The notes beneath the pieces were generated by a model. It did not search any database. It saw nothing but the letters and a program-made list of their open reading frames with translations, and had not been told where the DNA came from. DNA of 22,628 nt from a virus (Duplodnaviria; Heunggongvirae; Uroviricota; Caudoviricetes). The translations under genes and the position numbers were made by a program. Where the stretch lies: the IMG/VR virus record IMGVR_UViG_2861043448_000001; one strand, written 5' to 3'. Below, piece after piece: positions 5,913 through 20,655 of this stretch; position 1 is the first letter of the stretch, and each line of letters opens with the position of its first letter.

Positions 5913-6335
5913 GTGGCAAAAGTTTTTACACAAGAAGAGCGGGAAAAAATTAAAGGGCAGGTTGTTGAACTCGTACGCCGGAGTGGGCGTGAGACGTTAC
6001 GGCAACTGGAAGTCAAGACAGGTGCGACAAGATATCTGATGAGCGTTCTCGCAAGAGAGCTGGTTGCCAGCGGCGATGTATACAACTCTGGTTACGGGTT
6101 ATTCCCGTTTGAACAGGCGCGTAAGGACTGGCAAAATGCCCGTAAAAAGCTCTCAAGGGCAAAGCTGAAGGAACCATCTGCGGTTGATCCGGACCTTATC
6201 TGGTCATTACCTGACGGAGAAATACGTCGTTACGACAGGCGTCATAATATGATTTGTACTGAGTGTCGTAAAAGCGAAGTTATGCAGCGCATATTGTCGT
6301 TTTATCAGGGGGATGTCCGGTATTTATTGAAGTGA
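5913..6335 (+). CDS. hypothetical protein (140 aa)
   Basis: GTG start 5 nt after a strong SD (CAGGAGGG); no recognisable domain from sequence alone. Confidence 0.6.
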   Translation: MAKVFTQEEREKIKGQVVELVRRSGRETLRQLEVKTGATRYLMSVLARELVASGDVYNSGYGLFPFEQARKDWQNARKKLSRAKLKEPSAVDPDLIWSLPDGEIRRYDRRHNMICTECRKSEVMQRILSFYQGDVRYLLK

Positions 6336-6403
6336 CGAGATTAAAGTGCATTAGTTCAGATGCAAATTGACATTTTGTGGCACAGGGTAGAGCTAGCGTG
6401 GTT

Positions 6404-6427
6404 GTCCGCTTTGTGCCAAGAGCGGAC
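6404..6427. repeat. 24-bp hairpin element, copy 1 (GTCCGCTTTGTGCCAAGAGCGGAC)
   Basis: Near-identical to the copy at 7619-7642; 9-bp stem, 6-nt loop; lies about 40 bp outside the 3' end of the GIY-YIG gene. Confidence 0.5.
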
Positions 6428-6464
6428 TTTGCAAAATGGGGGTTATTTCAATCAAAACGTAACG

Positions 6465-7409
6465 TCACAACCAGCCGACGCTCTCTCGCCATTTATAATT
6501 AGTAACTTTATCATTTTCGCTTATTTTTTTAGATATAGAGCGCGGCTCTCTTCCTAGATACTCAGATATTTCTATCGGGGACAAATCAAAATCAACAAGC
6601 ATGACTCTAAGTTTTTCCATTTCCTTTAAAGTCCAAGGCTTGCCATAATTTTCATAAAGAGATACCTTATGCTCCCTGATAGTTCGCTTTCTCTGAGTTT
6701 CACTTTCCCTCTGAAAAATCTCGCTTTTAAATTGTGAACGGAACTCTTTACAGAAGTTGTTATCAGTTTTTTTGTTATATAGATTGCTAAAAATAAGCTG
6801 GGATGCCGGGTCTAAATCAGGTGTGTTAATAATGAAAACTTTGACCTTTTCCATATAGGGATATTCAATTTTACCCAATATGCTTAATTGCTTTATATTA
6901 AAAAAACCTCTCAAATCAAAAGATTTAATGAGCTTTGATTGGATTACACTTTCAATCCTGCTTGCATTTAAATAACAGTACTTTGCCATTGGAAGGGCCC
7001 ATACTACCAGTTGAGGAATATATTTTTCTAATGCAATGCTCTGCCAATCAGTATCAAAGGTTTGGCTTTTTGCTAGCATGTTTTTCGGCAAATCAGAATA
7101 CATTGTGGTAGATGCCCATATCTTATAATCATTCGCCAAGGCTTGATAGTATTTTGTGTGGTTATGAATTTTATAAGCTGACATGAAGCGATAAACGTCT
7201 TCGTCGTGACCAGCGTCGTAAATTGTTCGATTTCCTCTAAGATAACCGTCGTAATGTTCGGTTATCCTTCTACCTACATTACAACTTACCCCAACGTAAA
7301 CCACACGACTGAAAAGTCCTTTATGGACAATAAGATAAACTCCGCTACAGCCAGATTTCCTGGCCTCTGATAGAGAACCTAAAAATCTCCATTCCATAAT
7401 TAAATCCAT
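6465..7409 (-). CDS. GIY-YIG nuclease-domain protein (314 aa) with uncharacterised C-terminal region
   Basis: N-terminus CSGVYLIVHKGLFSRVVYVGVSCNVGRRITEHY fits GIY-x(about 12)-YVG ... R ... E spacing of GIY-YIG nucleases. The gene is markedly AT-rich compared with flanking phage genes. Confidence 0.75.
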   Translation of the reverse strand: MDLIMEWRFLGSLSEARKSGCSGVYLIVHKGLFSRVVYVGVSCNVGRRITEHYDGYLRGNRTIYDAGHDEDVYRFMSAYKIHNHTKYYQALANDYKIWASTTMYSDLPKNMLAKSQTFDTDWQSIALEKYIPQLVVWALPMAKYCYLNASRIESVIQSKLIKSFDLRGFFNIKQLSILGKIEYPYMEKVKVFIINTPDLDPASQLIFSNLYNKKTDNNFCKEFRSQFKSEIFQRESETQRKRTIREHKVSLYENYGKPWTLKEMEKLRVMLVDFDLSPIEISEYLGREPRSISKKISENDKVTNYKWRESVGWL

Positions 7410-7579
7410 AATTATTGCTACTGTTTTTGTTTATCATTATTTTCGTGAAACTTCAACAATTTTATCCAAAAGCTAAGGGCAAAGACTTATATAATTATAC
7501 TTGTCATCGTTAGCGATTATATAGAGTAGTGGCGCTGACCTGCTCCCTGGTGATTCACACAGAATGCTGTTAGTAATGT

Positions 7580-7642
7580 CCGTTCCTCGCTCTCAGCGGA
7601 CCTTCAGCTCAGTGATATCGTCCGCTCTGTGCAAAGAGCGGA
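7580..7642. repeat. two tandem hairpin elements (GTCCGTTCCTCGCTCTCAGCGGAC and GTCCGCTCTGTGCAAAGAGCGGAC)
   Basis: Second unit is a perfect 9-bp stem with 6-nt loop and matches the copy at 6404-6427; located in the 547-bp spacer between the GIY-YIG gene and the 449-aa gene. A further CCGCTCT-containing imperfect dyad occurs near 7760-7790. Confidence 0.45.
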
Positions 7643-7956
7643 CGTTGGTATGCAAGAGCCCTCCAAAAGTTGATGGTTGGTTTGCAGGGGGGCTTAAAGA
7701 AACTGCACTTATCAAGTTGAAGTTCTGTATTCAGCGAAATCGTAGCACTCTGACGATAAGTAACTCCGGTACTCCGCTCTTCGATGAAGAACCAGAGTAA
7801 TCCCCCCGAAAAACCAGCGCATCAAAATTGGATCTTCAGCGGTAGCTTATCGGCTATCGGAAGTACAGGTGTGGATTCGTGGTGAATTGCTTTGATAATA
7901 AACGATTAATACGGAAAAACGCATTAATCATTTATTAGCTTTTAGTAAACCACAAT

Positions 7957-9306
7957 TTATTCCGTTTTACATATCATAGTAGTCGATTGGAGAATATAGT
8001 TTCTGGGAATGTACTCTTCAAAGTGTTCGTCCTTTTTAAATACATGAACTACATTTGGGAATAATTGATAGTCAACAGGGTGTATAGCGTTTGGATTATG
8101 GTACATGTACATGGCTGTACACCATGGTTCTTGATAGTTAGGGTCACTTACATCGGCTGAAAATGGATGTGGGGCTGCATCCTGATCAGTTTTAACACCA
8201 CTGACGTACACTTTGAATCCACTCGCCTCTACACCTGCAAGAATTCCCATCCGGTTAAACTTAGGTATGGTTGCTTGAGTAGTGAGTAAAACGGCAGAAA
8301 CATAATTATTTTGTTCTGAGCCAAAAAAGTTCGACTTGATACTTCTATTTTCATCTGTATGTCTTTCAATAGAAATGCCTGACTCAATATCAATCCCGTA
8401 CAAATAGCTATGCAAGGCTTCGCTTGAGAAGGCCATGGACATTCTTTTTGAATAATCCTGCATTGCTATGACAAATGGTTTGTTCTTTGTATGGTTGAGT
8501 TCCCAGTAATGAACTTTCTCTGGCTCAGGGCAATGCCGGACTTTTTTTAATAAACTTCTTGCAAACTTAAAAGGCATGACATTTAGAACATGTTTTCTTA
8601 ATTCATCCATCTGTTCATCGTTAATGACTTTTCTTTCAAGAGGGGCTTCTGCTTCAGCAATGCTTACAGCCTCTACAGCAATTTCCACTCCAAATTTAGA
8701 TAGCAGAAAATCTGGTTGATTGTATTCTCTATTCATTTCAAAGTCGAGTTCATAAAATACAGCGTTCAAATATAATTCAAATAACCTTGAATTAAATGCA
8801 TCACTTTGAAAATCCCTTATAAATATTCCATCAGGATCTTTGAACCAGTATGCAAGTTCCTCAAGAACAATATATGCAGGGAAATGAAGAGGGTCTTCGA
8901 GGAGCATTTTTATATAAACATTCCTTTTTTTCGCTGGGACCTTACTCAAGAATAATGAAAAAGGTTTGGTTGATTCATCGCCTTGCATGAATGTACCATT
9001 TTGGTGCTGCGCCAGCATCTTTGGTATGTCATCGTTCAAATTATTAAGCAAGACATCCATTGAATCAAATGAAGCCAAGACGTTTATTGCTCTGAATTTT
9101 TTATCTAAATCCCGACCTAAGACTATTGCGTTAAAATCTTTATCAATATTGCATATGATTATTGTGGATAACAATGTTATCCCATTCCCCTCATATTTAA
9201 ACCAGCGTATCTCCTCAGAAAATGTCTTAAGGTAAGGTGAGCGACCGTAAAAATAAATATCAAATTGTTCTTTGCTGATCTCACTGAAGTGTAATCCTGC
9301 GTTCAT
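7957..9306 (-). CDS. hypothetical protein (449 aa), no recognisable domain
   Basis: Long intact ORF with AAGGA SD 7-11 nt upstream of the ATG; AT-rich; same strand as the adjacent GIY-YIG gene. Confidence 0.7.
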   Translation of the reverse strand: MNAGLHFSEISKEQFDIYFYGRSPYLKTFSEEIRWFKYEGNGITLLSTIIICNIDKDFNAIVLGRDLDKKFRAINVLASFDSMDVLLNNLNDDIPKMLAQHQNGTFMQGDESTKPFSLFLSKVPAKKRNVYIKMLLEDPLHFPAYIVLEELAYWFKDPDGIFIRDFQSDAFNSRLFELYLNAVFYELDFEMNREYNQPDFLLSKFGVEIAVEAVSIAEAEAPLERKVINDEQMDELRKHVLNVMPFKFARSLLKKVRHCPEPEKVHYWELNHTKNKPFVIAMQDYSKRMSMAFSSEALHSYLYGIDIESGISIERHTDENRSIKSNFFGSEQNNYVSAVLLTTQATIPKFNRMGILAGVEASGFKVYVSGVKTDQDAAPHPFSADVSDPNYQEPWCTAMYMYHNPNAIHPVDYQLFPNVVHVFKKDEHFEEYIPRNYILQSTTMICKTE

Positions 9307-9428
9307 ACCAATTCCTTTTCAATGAATAATTGGCCTTTAGGAGTGATTCCCTTTGTCTTTAATTCAGTTCTAACTAGTTCTTTAATCCAATAGCCTAAGC
9401 TCATCATGCAGTTGGATCATAAGACAAC

Positions 9429-9457
9429 GCCCTATAGTGCTCGTGATACTATAGGGC
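9429..9457. promoter_or_regulatory. perfect 10-bp inverted repeat with 9-bp spacer (GCCCTATAGT-gctcgtgat-ACTATAGGGC)
   Basis: Seen directly in the divergent region between the 449-aa gene and the recombinase gene; geometry resembles an operator or recombinase core site. Confidence 0.35.
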
Positions 9458-9590
9458 ATCTGACCACACTGTTAACTGGAGTAACGACTATGGCAGGAAT
9501 ACAGCATAACCAAACTCACCCCAAACTTACATAGCGCTTTCTGGCCGTGAGCATAACAAGGTCCACTCCTCGCTCATAAGGGACAACCAT

Positions 9591-9623
9591 ACTCAAATCT
9601 CCCACATTGCAGGAGATTTGAGT
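9591..9623 (+). promoter_or_regulatory. perfect 12-bp stem-loop sequestering the recombinase ribosome-binding site
   Basis: ACTCAAATCTCC-cacattgca-GGAGATTTGAGT; the AGGAG SD (9611-9615) lies in the loop/3' arm junction and the ATG (9624) follows immediately. Confidence 0.45.
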
Positions 9624-10226
9624 ATGAACACGTCACCGTGGAACAAAGACCGTATCATAGGCCAAAAAAGACCACTTCAGATATCTCATATCTGGGGTAT
9701 CCGAATCCGACTTGAACTGGAAGGTAAAACTCGCGATTTAGCTCTGTTCAACATGGCCCTGGATAGTAAGCTTCGAGGCTGTGATCTGGTCAAACTCAAA
9801 GTATCTGATGTTGCATATGGTGGCTCTGTTTCAAGCAGAGCAACGGTGTTGCAACAGAAAACCGGTAGCCCTGTTCAATTTGAGATAACCAAAGGGACAA
9901 GAGAAGCTGTTGCTGCATTGATACAGCTTAGCAATTTGCACAGTAAAGACTTCTTGTTTCGGTCTAGGGTCGGAACTAACCAGCACATTTCAACCCGGCA
10001 ATACAACCGAATCTTTCATGGGGGGGTAGAAAAGCTTGGTCTCGAAGATTCGCTTTACAGCACACATTCCATGAGAAGAACAAAACCTTACCTGATCTAC
10101 AAGAAAACCAAGAATCTCCGGGTGATCCAACTTCTGTTGGGTCATAAGAAACTGGAAAGCACAGTCCGTTATCTGGGCATTGAAGTCGATGATGCGTTAG
10201 AGATTTCTGAATCGATTGAAGTCTAA
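9624..10226 (+). CDS. small tyrosine recombinase, catalytic domain only (FimB/FimE-sized, 200 aa)
   Basis: Catalytic signature ...LRGCD (Arg-I) ... HSMRRT ... LLGH ... TVRYL (Tyr nucleophile). No N-terminal arm-binding domain. The track ORF begins at TTG 9618; ATG 9624 with AGGAG 8 nt upstream is preferred. Confidence 0.8.
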   Translation: MNTSPWNKDRIIGQKRPLQISHIWGIRIRLELEGKTRDLALFNMALDSKLRGCDLVKLKVSDVAYGGSVSSRATVLQQKTGSPVQFEITKGTREAVAALIQLSNLHSKDFLFRSRVGTNQHISTRQYNRIFHGGVEKLGLEDSLYSTHSMRRTKPYLIYKKTKNLRVIQLLLGHKKLESTVRYLGIEVDDALEISESIEV

Positions 10227-10585
10227 GGTTGTCAGGGCTGCAACAGCAGCCCTGTGCCATAAGCGGAAGTATTTAACAACTATCAGTGTTGTTCAACAGA
10301 TAAAGGGGCACTTGATTTTTTCTGTTCTCAGGAAATGATAAAAGCGCGTCGGTTCAAGCCTGCTTAACGGGAGTTTGTTAATCCTGTTGCCGTGACGTTT
10401 TGACACCATTATGATGGGGAGACACTTAATGTATGAAGGTTCCGCCACTTATACCTGTCCAACAACTGCCTCGGATGTTTCTTTGTATGAATAAGTGGTA
10501 ATGAGTAGTGAATCGCTAACAGTCACCCGAACAATCGGTGCCTGCAATTAATTCTATATTCTAAACGAGGGGGAGATTATTACAC

Positions 10586-11566
10586 ATGAAATTTAAGGAC
10601 AAGAACCTTAAGGCTCTCGCGGAATGTATCATAGGAGATAATAAGGCATTTCTGTATCGTTCAAGCAGTCACATCACTGAATTTTTCCAGGACTGCGGCA
10701 TGGATGTTACTCATGACGGATCCACTCGGTGGAAATGGACGGCCCAGAGGCTTGAAGAACTTCTTTATGAGCCACAGTCAAAGCCACATACTTTGCCGGA
10801 AAGGTTTGTTCATGTGCTCAGAACTTTAATGTTAAAAGAAGATGCAATGGATGACGATCCAGGAAGATTAAAGGCGCTTGAAGAACTGAACAAGCCTTTG
10901 ATGCGGGAAGGCTATGAGGCATTCTATGGTGACGATCGCCTTTTGTATATACGCCATACCGATACCAAAACGGTTTCAGTCAGTAATAACCCTCATCGGC
11001 CCTTAACGCCTCACGAAGTAGAATGCAGAAGGTTACTGACCGCGTTTCTTGATACCTGCTCAGAAGATGAGTTAATAGAAGATATTCTCCTTCCTTTATT
11101 CCGGCAACTTGGTTTTCACCGGATAACAGCAGTGGGACATAAAGATAAAGCGCTGGAATACGGGAAAGACATCTGGATGAAGTTCACACTGCCAACTCAG
11201 CATGTTCTTTATTTCGGCATTCAGGCAAAAAAAGGTAAGTTGGATGCGTCCGGTGCCAGCAAATCTACGAATTCAAACGTGGCAGAAATCTTCAACCAGG
11301 TACTGATGATGCTTGGCCATGAAATATTTGACCCAGAAACAAATAGAAAGGTGCTGGTAGATCATGCCTTTATCGTTGCTGGCGGAGAAATTACTAAACA
11401 GGCGAGGAACTGGCTGGGCGGGAAACTTGATGCCAGCAAAAGAAGCCAGATAATATTTATGGACCGGGAAGACATTCTTAATTTATATACTGTAAGTAAT
11501 GTACCTCTGCCAACAGGTGCTCTCATCTCTGATGATGCCGTTAAGAACGATGATATTCCTTTCTAA
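10586..11566 (+). CDS. protein with C-terminal Mrr-like PD-(D/E)xK nuclease motif and unknown N-terminal domain (326 aa)
   Basis: Strong SD (GAGGGGGAG). C-terminal half ...HRITAVGHKDKALEYGKDIWMKF...LYFGIQAKKG... resembles the Mrr catalytic core (D ... Q-x-K). Confidence 0.7.
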   Translation: MKFKDKNLKALAECIIGDNKAFLYRSSSHITEFFQDCGMDVTHDGSTRWKWTAQRLEELLYEPQSKPHTLPERFVHVLRTLMLKEDAMDDDPGRLKALEELNKPLMREGYEAFYGDDRLLYIRHTDTKTVSVSNNPHRPLTPHEVECRRLLTAFLDTCSEDELIEDILLPLFRQLGFHRITAVGHKDKALEYGKDIWMKFTLPTQHVLYFGIQAKKGKLDASGASKSTNSNVAEIFNQVLMMLGHEIFDPETNRKVLVDHAFIVAGGEITKQARNWLGGKLDASKRSQIIFMDREDILNLYTVSNVPLPTGALISDDAVKNDDIPF

Positions 11567-11993
11567 TCAGAAGTACGTCTTTTTCTGAAAGAATACGTGA
11601 TAGGTAGCCACACCACACCTTTAGTGACCCCTTAATCTGGTAATATAACAGCCCGTATGAATGTCCGCGGCATCGCGGGCTGAAATTTATTAAAAATACT
11701 TATTCATCAAGCTGGAGTAGTTTGCCGAGTAACTGTAAACGCCCAACTTAACCGGACCATTCACTTTTAGATTGCTACCAGCAAACCAACTTCCGTTTCT
11801 CGCTCAAAGCGGACTAGAAGGTTAGCTTGCGTCGGACTTGGCGTATTTAAAGAAGTGCTGGTGGTAACTGGTTGTTGTGTTCCATTTCTACAAAACAAAA
11901 TCACAGAAACTATACCCAATAGTTATATTGAATCAATGATGAGACAGCCTCATATTTATCAGAACTGGTGTACGTCCAATACAGGAGGTTGTC

Positions 11994-12083: not shown

Positions 12084-12237
12084 TTTTATATTGGCGAGGT
12101 GACGGGAGTTAAGTAGAATTGCTGCGGGTGCTTGAGGCTATCTGCCTCAGGCATGAACACCAAAGGCAGATAGAGAAAAGCCCCAGTTAACATTACGCGT
12201 CCTGCAAGACGTTTAACATTAATCTGAGGCTCAATCT

Positions 12238-12450
12238 ATGAACGGCAAATCTAGGTTAGCCTCTTACGTGCCGAAAGGCAAGGAGAAGCAGGCTATGAAG
12301 CAGCAAAAGGCGATGTTAATCGCCCTGATCGTCATCTGTTTAACCGTCATAATGACGGCACTGGTAACGAGGAAAGACCTCTGCGAGGTACGAATCCGAA
12401 CCGGCCAGACGGAGGTCGCTGTCTTCACAGCTTACGAACCTGAGGAGTAA
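12238..12450 (+). CDS. hok: Hok/Gef family type I toxin with in-frame Mok leader (hok proper = 12295..12450)
   Basis: MKQQKAMLIALIVICLTVIMTALVTRKDLCEVRIRTGQTEVAVFTAYEPEE is a near-match to Hok/Gef toxins; in-frame upstream extension from ATG 12238 as in chromosomal mok; candidate promoter TTGGCG-17-TAGAAT about 12097-12125. Confidence 0.85.
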   Translation: MNGKSRLASYVPKGKEKQAMKQQKAMLIALIVICLTVIMTALVTRKDLCEVRIRTGQTEVAVFTAYEPEE

Positions 12451-15661: not shown

Positions 15662-15737
15662 GGCCCTTTAGCTCAGTGGTGAGAGCGAGCGACTCATAAT
15701 CGACAGGTCGCTGGGTCAAATCCAGCAAGGGCCACCA
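15662..15737 (+). tRNA. tRNA with CAU anticodon (Ile2/Met type, ileX-like)
   Basis: Cloverleaf read by eye: acceptor GGCCCTT/AAGGGCC, anticodon loop CUCAUAA, T-arm GCUGG-GUCAAAU-CCAGC, 3' ACCA. Close to E. coli ileX as recalled. Confidence 0.85.
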
Positions 15738-15738
15738 A

Positions 15739-15815
15739 CCGTCACCAGTTCATCAGGAAAGAGCGTCAACCCTTTAAGTTGAGTGTGCGAGGTTCGAGTC
15801 CCCGGTGGCGGTCCA
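15739..15815 (+). tRNA. atypical tRNA-like gene (anticodon loop CCUUUAA; identity uncertain, possibly degenerate)
   Basis: 77 nt with acceptor, D, anticodon and T arms, but C at positions 8 and 33 and an A-C mismatch in the T-stem. Confidence 0.4.
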
Positions 15816-15817
15816 GT

Positions 15818-15893
<76 letters not shown>

Positions 15894-15896
15894 TAT

Positions 15897-15971
<75 letters not shown>

Positions 15972-16203: not shown

Positions 16204-16263
16204 CAAATCCCTTTCATTTCTCAGTGTAAAACTACGCCATCCGTTATTTGCGGAGGTGAGGCT

Positions 16264-18426
16264 ATGAAATCCATGGACAAAATTTCAACGGGCATTGCCT
16301 ATGGCACCTCCGCAGGCAGTGCTGGCTACTGGTTTTTACAGCTGCTCGATAAAGTCACGCCCTCACAGTGGGCAGCAATAGGTGTGCTGGGTATCCGCAC
16401 CGGCGGGCGCGTGCTGGCGGTAAACAGCCAGACCCGGACGCTGACGCTCGACCGTGAAATCACGCTGCCATCTTCCGGCACCACGCTGATAAGCCTGGTT
16501 GACGGGCAGGGGAGTCCGGTCAGCGTGGAGGTTCAGTCCGTCACCGACGGCGTGAAGGTGAAAGTGAGCCGTGTTCCTGACGGCGTTGCTGAATACAGCG
16601 TATGGGGGCTGAAGCTGCCGACGCTGCGCCAGCGCCTGTTCCGCTGCGTGAGTATCCGTGAGAACGACGACGGCACGTATGCCATCACCGCCGTGCAGCA
16701 TGTACCGGAAAAAGAGGCCATCGTGGATAACGGGGCGCACTTTGACGGCGACCAGAGCGGCACGGTAAATGGTGTCACGCCGCCAGCGGTGCAGCACCTG
16801 ACCGCAGAAGTCACCGCAGACAGCGGGGAATACCAGGTGCTGGCCCGCTGGGACACGCCGAAGGTGGTGAAGGGCGTGAGCTTCCTGCTTCGCCTGACCG
16901 TGGCAGCGGATGACGGCCGTGAGCGGCTGGTCAGCACGGCCCGGACGACGGAAACCACTTACCGCTTCACACAACTGGCTCTGGGGAACTACAGGCTGAC
17001 AGTCCGGGCAGTAAATGCGCGGGGGCAGCAGGGCGATCCGGCGTCGGTATCGTTCCGGATTGCCGCACCGGCAGCGCCGTCGCGGATTGAGCTGACGCCG
17101 GGCTATTTTCAGATAACCGCCACGCCGCATCTTGCGGTTTATGACCCGACGGTACAGTTTGAGTTCTGGTTCTCGGAAAAACGGATTGCGGATATCAGGC
17201 AGGTTGAAACCAGCGCGCGTTATCTTGGTACGGCACTGTACTGGATAGCCGCCAGTATCAATATCAAACCGGGCCATGATTATTATTTTTACGTTCGCAG
17301 TGTGAACACCGTTGGCAAATCGGCATTCGTGGAGGCTGTCGGTCAGCCGAGTGATGATGCATCAGGCTATCTGGATTTTTTCAAAGGCGAGATAGGGAAA
17401 ACCCATCTGGCTCAGGAGCTGTGGACGCAGATTGATAACGGTCAGCTTGCGCCTGACCTGACTGAAATCAGGACGTCCATAACGGATGTCAGCAATGAAA
17501 TAACACAGACCGTCAATAAGAAACTGGAAGACCAGAGTGCAGCGATCCAGCAGATACAGAAGGTTCAGGTTGATACAAATAATAACCTGAACAGCATGTG
17601 GGCAGTGAAGCTGCAGCAGATGCAGGACGGACGCCTTTATATTGCGGGTATCGGTGCCGGTATTGAGAACACCCCTGACGGCATGCAGAGTCAGGTGCTG
17701 CTGGCAGCAGACAGGATTGCGATGATTAATCCTGCGAATGGCAACACAAAGCCGATGTTTGTTGGTCAGGGCGATCAGATATTCATGAATGAAGTGTTCC
17801 TGAAACGCCTGACGGCCCCCACCATTACCAGCGGCGGTAATCCTCCGGCATTTTCCCTGACATCAGACGGGAGACTGACGGCGAAAAATGCGGATATCAG
17901 TGGCAGTGTGAATGCGAACTCAGGAACGCTCAACAATGTCACGATTAACCAGAACTGTACGATTAAGGGCATGCTGGAGGCGACCCAGGTCAGAGGAGAT
18001 TTCGTTAAAGCTGTATCAAAAGCCTTCCCGAAAAAAGTCGGTACGTGGGGTAACACGGAAACACCAAACGGTACGGTTACAGTAACCATCAGCGATGATC
18101 ATAACTTTGACCGCCAGATTATTATTCCGCCCATTATTTTTAACGGTATAGCGTATGACGATCCGGGGAGCGGAAATAACCCAGGAGGCACGCGATACAC
18201 GGGTTATGGTTTTGAAGTTCGCAAAAACGGCGTATTAATCGCATCCAGAGAAACTAAAGGGGCCATTCCCGGTAGTTACAGTGCAGTTATTGATATGCCG
18301 AGTGGCAGGGGAAGCGTCACTCTGGAGTTTAAGATTTTCCAGAAAGGCAATCAGGGGGCAGGCAATATCACCGACTGTACGGTGATTGTGACCAAAAAAG
18401 CGGCTTCCGGCATCAGTATTCGTTGA
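16264..18426 (+). CDS. chimeric ORF: class II (phage 21 S-type) holin N-terminus (43 aa) fused in frame to the C-terminal about 677 aa of tail tip host-specificity protein J
   Basis: Residues 1-43 ([26 protein letters not shown]...AAIGVLG) match the phage 21 pinholin N-terminus as recalled; from residue 44 ([20 protein letters not shown]...) to the end the protein is collinear with lambda J from about residue 455. Strong SD (GGAGGTGAGG). Junction at about nt 16392/16393. Confidence 0.8.
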
Positions 18427-18448
18427 AATATTTATAACCCCAATAAAG

Positions 18449-18475
18449 GGCGTCAGGAATGACGCCTTTTTTATT
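18449..18475 (+). terminator. intrinsic terminator after the J fragment
   Basis: GGCGTCA-ggaa-TGACGCC followed by TTTTTTATT. Confidence 0.6.
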
Positions 18476-18496
18476 GCAGAAAAGCGAGAGGTAATT

Positions 18497-18892
18497 ATGC
18501 GTAAAGTTTGTGCAGCAATTTTGTCCGCAGCCATTTGTCTGGCCGTATCCGGTGCGCCTGCATGGGCGTCTGAACATCAGTCCACGCTGAGCGCGGGGTA
18601 TCTTCATGCCCGGACCAACGTTCCCGGCAGTGATGATCTGAACGGGATTAACGTGAAATATCGTTATGAGTTTACGGATACGCTGGGGCTGGTGACGTCA
18701 TTCAGCTATGCAGGAGACAAGAATCGCCAGCTGACCCGTTACAGCGATACCCGCTGGCATGAAGATTCCGTGCGTAACCGCTGGTTCAGCGTGATGGCGG
18801 GGCCGTCTGTGCGCGTGAATGAATGGTTCAGCGCGTATGCGATGGTACTGGTGGAAGAACTATCGAGCAAGCACGTGCGAACTTGCGGGTAA
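18497..18892 (+). pseudogene. lom: truncated lom (Lom/Ail outer-membrane protein, N-terminal about 115 aa)
   Basis: Signal peptide plus ...GINVKYRYEFTD...RWFSVMAGPSVRVNEWFSAYAM... matches lambda Lom; similarity ends at about nt 18845 and the frame runs into unrelated sequence before a stop. Confidence 0.7.
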
Positions 18893-20655
18893 TGTATGAG
18901 CAAAAAGCTGGCCTTGCTAATACTGACCTAAACACCCTTACCGGTGAATATTCTGGTTTCTATCAACAACCAACGAGCGCTTACGCAACAGAAGAGTTAA
19001 ATTACCCAATCGGTCTGGCGGGCGCTTTAATAGTGCTCCAAACGAGAGCCAACACTGCTTCTTCCTGCGTTCAGGTGTACCACCCTTATAATAATCCGGG
19101 AATTACTTATAGACGAATATATGAAGGAGGTAGCGGTACCTGGTCTGAATGGAAGAGAGATGTATCAACAGAAAGGGTTGAAGAGGGAAAAGAAACAACT
19201 TACGTATATTCTACGTATTCTTCAGGCGCACCACGCTTACAGGTTTCCAAATCTGGTTTGTGGGGTTGTCATAATGGCACTGGCTGGTTGCCATTAGCTG
19301 TTGGGCAAGGAGGTACAGGTGCGACAACAGTAGAAGATGCGCGAAACAACTTAAGTCTTGGCGAAAGTAGCGCAGTTAAATTTAAAAACCTTACTTTAAC
19401 CGAAGCGCTCGACACGACATTAGGACTGCTTACAAAAACAGGACGAGACTGGAACACGCAGCATACTGATAACATTAATAAATTTATACCAATTGCAGGC
19501 AGTACAAACGGCCCGGCAGGCTCTATGGTTCTTGGCGGCATTCATGTTCAATTTAGTAAAAATTATGCTGTGCAGTTCGGAGGCCGCAATTCCGGTTTTT
19601 GGGGAAGAACAATTGAAAATGGAACGACACAGGAATGGAAGAAATTACTAACAGTAGACGATCTCAATTCATCTACCGATCTTGCTGTCAGGTCATTAAC
19701 CACATCTAACCCGGTAAAATCTGGCGGAGGGCGAATTGATGTCCTTGGAAGCACGTCAGACTATAGCAAAATGGATTGCTTTGTACGTGGGTTTGATAGC
19801 ACCGGTAATTCTCTCGTGTGGGCGTTGGGTTCATCAGTCGGCGTAAGTAAGATGCTATCGCTAAAAAATTTCTTTAGCGGAGCTGAGATACTGTTAAATG
19901 GTAATGACGGCGCGGTTCAACTCAAAACAGGTGCTGTTAACGGGGCTACAGCGCAGACGCTCACTATCAACAAGAATGAGGTTAACTCAACCGTTGATTT
20001 AACCCTTACAAAGCAATCAGGGACTGGTAATCGTTTTGTTTTACAGAACTCAGGTAATGCAGAACTACCGTTTTCTGTCAGGGTGTGGGGTTCCAGTACT
20101 CGACAAAACGTTTTTGAGGTTGGAACGTCTGCTGCGTATCTGTTTTATGCGCAAAAAACGTCAGCAGGCCAGTTGTTTGATGTAAATGGCGCTATTAATT
20201 GCACAACGCTGAATCAGTCATCAGACCGCGACCTTAAAGACGATATTCTCGTTATCAGCGACGCGACGAAAGCAATCCGTAAAATGAACGGATACACCTA
20301 CACGCTCAAGGAAAACGGGATGCCTTATGCTGGCGTTATTGCACAGGAAGTAATGGAGGCGATACCAGAAGCTGTGGGATCGTTTACTCATTATGGTGAA
20401 GAGTTGCAAGGTCCGACCGTTGACGGCAACGAGCTACGCGAAGAAACTCGCTATCTTAATGTTGACTACTCCGCCGTGACGGGTTTACTTGTTCAGGTCG
20501 CCCGTGAAACAGATGATCGCGTTACCGCGCTGGAAGAGGAAAACACAACGCTACGTCAAAATCTGGCAACAGCAGGCACCCGGATCAGCACTCTGGAAAA
20601 TCAGGTAAGCGAACTGGTTGCACTTGTCCGGCAGTTAACAGGAAGCGAACATTGA
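18823..20655 (+). CDS. tail fibre protein (probably 5'-truncated) with C-terminal intramolecular chaperone (peptidase S74-like) domain
   Basis: Tail-fibre motif GQGGTGATTVEDARNNLSLG; C-terminal SDRDLKDDILVIS...NGYTYTLKENG...DYSAVTGLLVQVARE resembles autoproteolytic chaperone domains of tailspikes. The N-terminus starts inside lom in another frame; ATG 18892 is an alternative internal start. Confidence 0.7.
   Translation: MVQRVCDGTGGRTIEQARANLRVMYEQKAGLANTDLNTLTGEYSGFYQQPTSAYATEELNYPIGLAGALIVLQTRANTASSCVQVYHPYNNPGITYRRIYEGGSGTWSEWKRDVSTERVEEGKETTYVYSTYSSGAPRLQVSKSGLWGCHNGTGWLPLAVGQGGTGATTVEDARNNLSLGESSAVKFKNLTLTEALDTTLGLLTKTGRDWNTQHTDNINKFIPIAGSTNGPAGSMVLGGIHVQFSKNYAVQFGGRNSGFWGRTIENGTTQEWKKLLTVDDLNSSTDLAVRSLTTSNPVKSGGGRIDVLGSTSDYSKMDCFVRGFDSTGNSLVWALGSSVGVSKMLSLKNFFSGAEILLNGNDGAVQLKTGAVNGATAQTLTINKNEVNSTVDLTLTKQSGTGNRFVLQNSGNAELPFSVRVWGSSTRQNVFEVGTSAAYLFYAQKTSAGQLFDVNGAINCTTLNQSSDRDLKDDILVISDATKAIRKMNGYTYTLKENGMPYAGVIAQEVMEAIPEAVGSFTHYGEELQGPTVDGNELREETRYLNVDYSAVTGLLVQVARETDDRVTALEEENTTLRQNLATAGTRISTLENQVSELVALVRQLTGSEH

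Follow-up and report, generated by a model that had tools for sequence, protein, structure and literature searches.

Independent single-gene cassettes, one of them carrying the anti-phage gene PD-T7-1, between two types of 24-bp site in the cargo slot of a Qin-like prophage

The window analysed here, a DNA stretch of 22,628 nucleotides (IMG/VR record IMGVR_UViG_2861043448_000001), is a Qin-like cryptic lambdoid prophage of Escherichia coli, and two neighbouring leftward genes of its cargo interval, coding for proteins of 449 and 314 amino acids (aa), are the starting point of this study. The two genes are very probably independent single-gene cassettes, one consisting of the published anti-phage gene PD-T7-1 and the other of a gene for a GIY-YIG nuclease, which sit in a slot delimited by two types of short site, termed L and R, and are exchanged at the spacers of these sites. 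The units of the slot are bounded by L and R sites, the recombinant joints lie in the spacers, the slot itself is conserved while its content varies, and the gene of a small tyrosine recombinase is always located between an R and an L site.

Two types of site delimit the units of the slot

A repeat search revealed a recurring 24-bp element composed of 8-bp inverted arms, GTCCGCTC and GAGCGGAC, around an 8-bp spacer. Sites with the spacer TGTGCCAA are referred to as L and those with the spacer CTCGCTCA as R, the arms being common to both. When the window was compared with the other contexts in which its parts occur, homology was found in discrete blocks (6404-7613, 7624-9579, 9562-10267 and 10246-11565), all of which end in sites (Table 1); the homology between plasmids and the third cassette, which encodes a 326-aa orphan protein, begins at 10246. 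As would be expected of cassette exchange, these breakpoints place the recombinant joints inside the site spacers. Comparison of sites across contexts further showed that the outer arm varies with the context, while the spacer and the inner arm stay with the cargo. The L site at 6404 accordingly derives its left arm and spacer from the lambdoid backbone and its right arm from the GIY-YIG cassette; at the R site at 9561, the left arm and spacer are those of the PD-T7-1 cassette and the right arm is that of the recombinase unit; and the R site at 11791 has the spacer and right arm of the lambdoid backbone. Between the GIY-YIG and PD-T7-1 genes, an R site, an 18-bp linker and an L site follow one another in a 66-bp composite junction, which P2-like phages and several hundred E. 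coli genomes share at ~95% identity. Altogether, 185 kb of related loci contain 32 L/R sites, in a single orientation, as compared with 0-3 in 50 shuffles.

No Pfam, PADLOC, NCBIfam or PHROG match was obtained for the 326-aa orphan, copies of which (84-88% identity) are carried by plasmids of Salmonella, Kosakonia, Klebsiella and Escherichia albertii.

A conserved slot with variable content

The prophage backbone is common to thousands of E. coli prophages up to ~6413-6433, where they diverge. Four lambdoid (pro)phages are identical up to '...GCGTGGTT GTCCGCTT TGTGCCAA' and again from 'CTCGCTCA AAGCGGAC TAGAAGGTTAGC...' onward, and the cargo enclosed between these two points is different in each: two hypothetical genes in the first, genes for a BCCT transporter and a DUF2254 protein followed by LysR, GGCT and MFS genes in the second, PD-T7-1 alone in the third (mEp460_ev081) and the three-cassette array of the window in the fourth. 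The BCCT/DUF2254 unit was also found between L sites on a plasmid. Excision from the window was simulated by joining L to L (6404 x 7620) and R to R (9561 x 11791); the resulting 3055-bp product aligns with the slot of mEp460_ev081 as one colinear block, whereas the unexcised window aligns with it in three pieces. The additional units of the window are therefore what single-site integrations at L and R would add.

L and R sites are also present in unrelated backbones, namely P2-like phages, plasmids and P4-type islands. In P2-like phages the PD-T7-1 cassette is inserted between gpFI and a gene that is presumably involved in tail-fibre assembly (unnamed in the record), a position which we take to be the Z/fun hotspot of P2.

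The PD-T7-1 cassette of Yersinia phage vB_YpM_46 (L101 3990-5975) has inverted hexamers, CTGACA and TGTCAG, outside its L and R sites, and CTGACA also precedes the terminal L sites in P4-type islands (L003 and L006). In the Qin prophage of strain K-12 (L091), flxA is found beside relBE, between an L-type site (5982-6005), which lies within the annotated ydfV open reading frame (ORF), and an R-like site (~6985-7010).

A small tyrosine recombinase between R and L sites

The recombinase of the window is intact, matches the Phage_integrase family (PF00589, E=2e-17) and possesses all six catalytic residues (R51, K79, H148, R151, H174 and Y183, as read from its sequence); its top matches are Xer-type proteins, not IntI. 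Of the 5426 complete E. coli genomes, 848 carry the gene; it resides at several loci as well as on plasmids, most usually in P4-type islands beside YeeP-like GTPase and Ag43 genes. Its orthologues (at least 60% identity) occupy more than 545 loci in species-representative genomes of Gamma- and Betaproteobacteria, and in all Enterobacterales loci the gene is preceded by an R site at a distance of 63 bp and followed by an L site at 19 bp. Related end motifs accompany more distant orthologues (60-82% identity) from Idiomarina, the Halomonas group and Pseudomonas: the Idiomarina locus retains the downstream GTGCCAAGAGCGGAC motif, while the Halomonas-group and Pseudomonas loci have the related motifs CGGCCAAGAGCAGTC and CGGCCAGAAGCGGCC in its place, and in Pseudomonas the end motifs form 15-22-bp inverted repeats around the gene.

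Among the cargo that adjoins the recombinase gene in other E. coli arrays are HEC-08 (1e-173), Drt1b (6e-97), PD-T7-5 (8e-102) and a LeoBC-like dynamin (1e-9); for 6 of the 10 cargo proteins tested, no match was obtained. In one of these strains (L008 12385-13407), PD-T7-5, a relative of PD-T7-1, is bracketed by two R-type sites next to a recombinase of the same family.

Overlapping the start of the window's recombinase gene is a perfect 15-bp inverted repeat, which would sequester its Shine-Dalgarno sequence and ATG codon. The orthologues of Pseudomonas, Xanthomonadales and Burkholderiales (loci L011-L090) have different sequences at this place, which are predicted to form the same kind of hairpin over the Shine-Dalgarno sequence. 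This recurrence suggests that the gene is under conserved translational control. The ydfW gene of K-12 was considered as a remnant of the recombinase gene and rejected, no protein similarity being detected.

These observations can be combined into a mechanism. The GIY-YIG, PD-T7-1 and 326-aa units would be discrete cassettes, each with an L site at its left and an R site at its right, which fill the fixed L...R slot of lambdoid prophages, from the DUF977 gene to hok/sok. They would be gained, lost or swapped through crossovers inside the spacers, restricted to pairs of L sites or pairs of R sites; in this proposal the 200-aa recombinase cuts L and R alike at the edges of the spacer. The difference between the spacers would block the deletion of a cassette by L-by-R recombination, as is the case with heterospecific lox sites; the addition of a cassette, its loss as a circle together with the neighbouring junction, or its replacement by another would still be feasible. 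It is the constant position of the recombinase gene between R and L sites that points to its product as the catalyst, and cassettes devoid of a nearby recombinase gene would be either served in trans or fossils.

We tentatively put forward that the small recombinase and the two heterospecific 24-bp sites constitute an undescribed, integron-like system of cassette exchange, which would shuttle self-expressed anti-phage genes between fixed slots of lambdoid and P2-like phages, P4-type islands and plasmids across Gamma- and Betaproteobacteria. The cargo that we assign to it comprises PD-T7-1, PD-T7-5, HEC-08, DRT1, the GIY-YIG-Myb nuclease and the 326-aa orphan. No description of such a recombinase and its sites was found in the open-access literature, to which the search extended (including papers on E. 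coli defence islands, pipolins, P2/P4 hotspots and the classification of tyrosine recombinases) and whose silence is no proof of absence.

The cargo: PD-T7-1 and a GIY-YIG nuclease

The initial annotation of the window, which was made from sequence without database searches, had regarded the two leftward genes as a candidate undescribed anti-phage or abortive-infection module, the 449-aa protein having no domain that it could recognise. The PADLOC search that it recommended places this protein in the PD-T7-1 family end to end (PDLC04073, E=7.3e-157, 520.7 bits, residues 8-447 against profile positions 2-448 of 452) and gives only noise for the 314-aa protein. A nuclease core resembling that of restriction endonucleases was found in the 449-aa protein, and D199, E212 and K255 are invariant across 31 homologues. 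According to Vassallo et al. 2022 (Nat Microbiol; PMC9519451), PD-T7-1 is one ORF of 1351 bp from strain ECOR46, which is active alone; the clone, with ~300 bp of native upstream DNA, protects against T7 and more strongly against T-even phages, and the phenotype is known only for this clone. The ORF of the window is equal in length to that of ECOR46. Judging from its sequence, the 449-aa protein is thus PD-T7-1, a published single-gene anti-phage system whose phenotype is taken here from the literature. Nothing substantive distinguishes it from the family, given the full-length match to the hidden Markov model (HMM), the equal length, the single-gene organization and the upstream region of its own. 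The searchable text of that paper contains no mention of flanking L/R sites.

Upstream of the PD-T7-1 gene, and inside its cassette, we identified a promoter-like site (TTAACA-16-TATAGT), which is a consensus match only (10/12) and from which the gene would be transcribed. The same cassette contains a fragment of an AlpA-family gene, and an intact alpA adjoins the PD-T7-1 homologue of Serratia. In Pseudomonas fluorescens HK44 (L102 4748-7410), a PD-T7-1 homologue of 51% identity overlaps the end of an RVT_1 reverse-transcriptase gene by 4 bp, an arrangement that suggests an operon of a reverse transcriptase and a PD-T7-1-like effector.

As for the 314-aa protein, the initial annotation had described an N-terminal GIY-YIG signature attached to an unassigned C-terminal region. 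The GIY-YIG fold is real, and the C-terminal part can now be assigned to a long helix and a Myb/SANT-like helix-turn-helix (HTH) domain in a structure model with a mean predicted local distance difference test score (pLDDT) of 91.9. The Pfam GIY-YIG match is below threshold (15.8 bits as compared with a cutoff of 22.6). In 30 sequences of the family, Y25 (of GVY), Y38-V39-G40 (YVG), R48, H52, E153 and N171 are nevertheless invariant, as are W259, E265, R268, R287 and W307 of the C-terminal part. With the fold, the GIY/YIG motifs and the catalytic Arg, Glu and Asn all present, the protein is a member of the GIY-YIG nuclease superfamily. Its family is conserved over the full length down to 40% identity in Gamma- and Betaproteobacteria, including Enterobacterales, Vibrio, Aeromonas, Pseudoalteromonas, Thalassotalea and Undibacterium.

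The genomic neighbours of this family are often conflict genes. The Thalassotalea homologue lies next to a BrxR-regulated operon with an MksE-like gene, and that of Undibacterium next to HEPN-RES, HNH and Endonuclease_NS genes; in E. coli, the GIY-YIG gene without PD-T7-1 adjoins a gene for a NACHT protein in one context and is part of an island with a type I restriction-modification (RM) system and DarTG in another. The protein may be a defence gene product, a prediction that we advance with reserve. It would act as a single-protein nuclease against invading DNA, its HTH domain positioning the nuclease on the DNA as in I-TevI-type enzymes. Among the known defence families, PADLOC matches did not rise above noise and were confined to the GIY motif (PDC-S14, 0.0075; UzuA, 0.015). 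FS_GIY_YIG, a DefenseFinder model, is mentioned in papers on Firmicutes. PD-T4-3, a single-gene GIY-YIG nuclease (COG3680) of defence islands, has the conserved catalytic residues in common with the 314-aa protein; membership of that family was rejected, as no PADLOC match to PD-T4-3 was obtained at E<=1, and so was a PD-T4-3- or LEM-3-like relation, BLASTP against the LEM-3-like protein of locus L004 giving E=14.

The defence cargo that had been anticipated is therefore real for at least one gene, PD-T7-1, although the module is neither undescribed, this gene having been published and being active on its own (PMC9519451), nor composed of two genes. A known defence gene with an unrelated neighbour explains most of the original finding, and the GIY-YIG protein remains as an undescribed candidate: a predicted nuclease, conserved and self-contained, that travels with validated defence genes.

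Alternative explanations

Several points weigh against the picture of site-specific cassette exchange drawn above. Cassettes at six loci (L002-L005, L095 and L097) have no recombinase gene within 7-8 kb, so that action in trans or fossil status has to be invoked. The link between recombinase and sites rests on position across genera, from which catalysis is inferred. The array is irregular, one unit of CFT073 being bounded by R...R. A reading of the same repeats as insertion sequence (IS)-like or miniature inverted-repeat transposable element (MITE)-like is possible, as is exchange via short-homology recombination at the conserved sequences of 16-24 bp. As regards the cargo, the identity of the 449-aa protein to the tested ECOR46 allele, RCQ85672.1, is deduced from the HMM match and the equality in length, the 314-aa protein lacks a PADLOC match above noise (E 0.0075-0.015, to the motif only), and some of its homologues, such as the Serratia copy, reside among ordinary metabolic genes.

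The closest rival, though in our judgement an unlikely one, regards the repeats as the ends of a small IS-like element consisting of the recombinase gene and imperfect inverted repeats, the R site corresponding to the reverse complement of the L site. The 66-bp composite would then be a miniature derivative of the element, and the 'cassettes' DNA caught between copies of it that travels when these copies recombine. The sequence GTCCGCTYCTSGCWCA is indeed common to R and to the reverse complement of L, and the gene is flanked by perfect inverted repeats of 15-22 bp in Pseudomonas and Stutzerimonas. A 74-bp stub points in the same direction. It corresponds to 9570-9643 of the window, from the right-hand portion of the R site through the 5' leader to the initial codons of the recombinase gene, and recurs with ~96% conservation in P2-like Yersinia phages and more than 500 Klebsiella plasmids that lack the remainder of the gene; it may be a deletion derivative. 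Taken alone, the IS-like reading leaves unexplained why a single L and a single R site, with different spacers, persist in the lambdoid slot and why the inner arm of each site is cargo-specific. The two models overlap heavily, and differ mainly in which segment is counted as mobile.

A second alternative concerns the 314-aa protein, which could be a free-standing selfish endonuclease of the homing type, cutting cassette-free alleles in order to spread itself. The bipartite layout recalls I-TevI, a GIY-YIG domain that has the Tyr, Tyr, Arg, His, Glu and Asn residues being connected through a linker to an HTH at the C terminus; the best NCBIfam match is to TIGR01453, 'group I intron endonuclease' (E 0.027); and the GIY-YIG unit is mobile and self-contained. 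The score of this match is, however, far under the cutoff (14.5 vs 56 bits), and the resemblance to I-TevI and TIGR01453 is limited to domain layout, the gene being located neither in an intron nor in a phage core gene. No significant sequence similarity links the protein to I-TevI or PD-T4-3, from which it also differs by large insertions in the GIY-YIG domain and by the Myb/SANT-like type of its HTH. Its whole length of ~310 aa is conserved to 40% identity with many invariant residues, unlike fast-decaying homing genes, its neighbours are frequently defence genes, and its mobility is already accounted for by the L/R sites. The homing interpretation is thus rather improbable, and membership of the homing endonucleases was rejected on the grounds of the sub-cutoff match and of the gene's status as a cassette between sites, carried by islands, plasmids and prophages.

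Less probable again is that the L/R motifs are regulatory hairpins of morons, acting as terminators or insulators, with turnover by homologous or illegitimate recombination and the recombinase as a bystander. Terminators often bracket morons, and the internal sites are palindromic and predicted to fold (z ~-3.8). Yet the stems have no downstream T-run, the slot-end sites at 9561 and 11791 lack palindromic symmetry and do not fold (z -0.6 and -0.7), and the best-conserved part is the asymmetric 8-bp spacer rather than the stem. The same sites, moreover, bracket the recombinase gene across genera and are found in the unrelated backbones mentioned above. Folding bears on the proposed exchange as well: the 66-bp composite forms two small hairpins only and the slot-end sites are unfolded, so that an attC-like folded substrate was rejected and double-stranded core sites are favoured.

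Finally, the co-occurrence of the two genes speaks to whether they are partners. Of the 5426 complete E. coli genomes, 289 carry the GIY-YIG gene and 201 PD-T7-1; ~180 have both, in every case as a 100%-identical block of 2971 bp, which fits the clonal inheritance of a single array. Elsewhere the genes occur separately. Plasmids of E. coli and Serratia carry the GIY-YIG cassette alone; PD-T7-1 adjoins a type II RM system at the E. coli pao locus and is also borne by phage mEp460_ev081, one Morganella phage and P2-like Yersinia phages. GIY-YIG is not among the neighbours of the PD-T7-1 homologues of Serratia and Pseudomonas. The 547 bp that separate the two genes in the window contain the composite recombination junction and the alpA pseudogene fragment. 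A joint role of the two proteins, as a new two-component system of defence or abortive infection, is hence extremely improbable: the genes are adjacent, co-oriented and AT-rich, and the pair is perfectly conserved in ~180 genomes, but these copies fit one clonally inherited array, many contexts and genera have only one of the two genes, a recombination junction lies between them, and PD-T7-1 is reported to be active on its own (PMC9519451). A two-gene operon or system was rejected on the co-occurrence data together with the junction, and the conserved co-occurrence on whose absence the initial annotation had agreed to abandon its module is indeed missing. We consider the genes to be two unrelated single-gene cassettes, brought side by side by an accident of cassette accumulation.

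The prophage and other features of the window

The coordinates and strand of both leftward ORFs were reproduced, as was the drop in GC content that had drawn attention to them (0.33-0.39 across 6400-9400, against ~0.45-0.54 on both flanks). Their description as AT-rich accessory cargo in a moron hotspot of lambdoid phages was equally borne out, the slot being located between the replication-region DUF977 gene and hok/sok-Q. An identical locus is present in E. coli strain WCHEC035148, where RefSeq annotation places it between rspB and ydfJ. The gene order there starts with integrase, excisionase, exonuclease, ydfD, dicB, a replication-region gene and DUF977, continues with two opposite-strand hypothetical genes, the 200-aa 'site-specific integrase' and one more hypothetical gene, and ends with hokD, rem, DUF968, RusA and the Q antiterminator.

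An Rfam scan of the window matched sok and three tRNA genes only, and no Rfam family was matched by the repeats of the locus. The prophage is defective over ~16260-20650 (L001 23925-28496 in the identical RefSeq locus), where a holin fragment abuts fragments of tail-tip, Lom and tail-fibre genes, all annotated as pseudogenes. GC content peaks at 0.64 in 16400-17200.

Table 1. Position of the sites, genes and other elements of the cargo slot and its right flank in the window
Feature	Coordinates	Strand	Remarks
L site GTCCGCTT TGTGCCAA GAGCGGAC	6404..6427	+	left boundary of cargo slot
GIY-YIG nuclease, 314 aa	6465..7409	-	GIY-YIG ~5-175 with insertions, long helix ~218-251, Myb/SANT-like HTH ~255-314
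R site GTCCGTTC CTCGCTCT CAGCGGAC	7578..7601	+	right end of GIY-YIG cassette
18-bp linker cttcagctcagtgatatc	7602..7619	+	between R and L sites
L site GTCCGCTC TGTGCAAA GAGCGGAC	7620..7643	+	left end of PD-T7-1 cassette
AlpA-family HTH gene fragment (pseudogene remnant)	7815..7895	+	inside PD-T7-1 cassette; RefSeq annotation
PD-T7-1, 449 aa	7957..9306	-	PD-(D/E)XK-like nuclease core; PADLOC match, invariant residues
Promoter-like site	9448..9475	-	upstream of PD-T7-1, inside cassette; consensus match only
R site GTCCACTC CTCGCTCA TAAGGGAC	9561..9584	+	between PD-T7-1 cassette and recombinase unit
Perfect 15-bp inverted repeat	9588..9626	+	would sequester Shine-Dalgarno sequence and ATG of recombinase gene
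Tyrosine recombinase, 200 aa, intact	9624..10226	+	between R and L sites
L site AGCAGCCC TGTGCCAT AAGCGGAA	10245..10268	+	left end of third cassette; overlaps hairpin
Orphan protein, 326 aa	10586..11566	+	third cassette
R site TTCCGTTT CTCGCTCA AAGCGGAC	11791..11814	+	right boundary of cargo slot
sok antitoxin RNA	12126-12300		Rfam, 111.7 bits; directly right of cargo slot
Three tRNA genes	15662-15968		Rfam; downstream of Q

Comparison with known mobile systems

The greater value of the locus is that it bears on a question of the defence-island field, namely how single defence genes pass from one hotspot to another among unrelated mobile elements. Should the proposed action of the 200-aa recombinase on the L/R sites prove correct, the sites would provide a sequence handle for cassette boundaries, the cargo could be catalogued through them, with new defence candidates emerging by guilt by association, and the phages, plasmids and islands capable of exchanging immunity genes could be predicted.

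Integrons offer an evident parallel, as they too combine a tyrosine recombinase with a neighbouring array of site-bounded cassettes, in which single units are inserted or lost and defence genes are found among the cargo; here, as in integrons, the recombinase gene is divergent from the GIY-YIG and PD-T7-1 cassettes, with a site in between. Membership was nevertheless rejected on three counts, namely integrase type, attC sites and promoterless cassettes. IntI is ~320 aa long and has a specific insertion, whereas the recombinase of the window has 200 aa and scores ~17 bits against the integron-integrase models, the cutoffs of which are 435 (NF011946) and 265 (TIGR02249). The attC sites of integrons are hairpins with GTTRRRY cores, unlike the 24-bp arm-spacer-arm sites (8-8-8) of the window with their two spacer types. 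Integron cassettes are promoterless, whereas cassettes of the kind found in the window measure 1.2-5.7 kb, have promoters of their own and occur in either orientation, and the recombinase gene is here part of the array itself, flanked by an R and an L site.

The Rci recombinase of the shufflon of IncI plasmids has ~384 aa. Rci only inverts, and the arms of its sfx sites are unrelated to those of the L/R sites (sfx right arm TCCGGTACGTGG). The L spacers at 6412-6419 and 7628-7635 (TGTGCCAA) contain GTGCCAA, the 7-bp crossover core of sfx (PMC4176322). This resemblance may be due to chance.

A further parallel is offered by the pdif modules of Acinetobacter plasmids, which are Xer-dependent and likewise consist of discrete modules bounded by short core sites and exchanged whole between replicons. 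Their dif sites are 11-6-11 XerC/D sites unrelated to L and R, and a dedicated small recombinase would here take the place of the host XerC/D. In the logic of its sites, the proposed system resembles the engineered exchange of cassettes between heterospecific lox or FRT sites, where common arms are combined with different spacers, which allows the replacement of a flanked segment but not its deletion.

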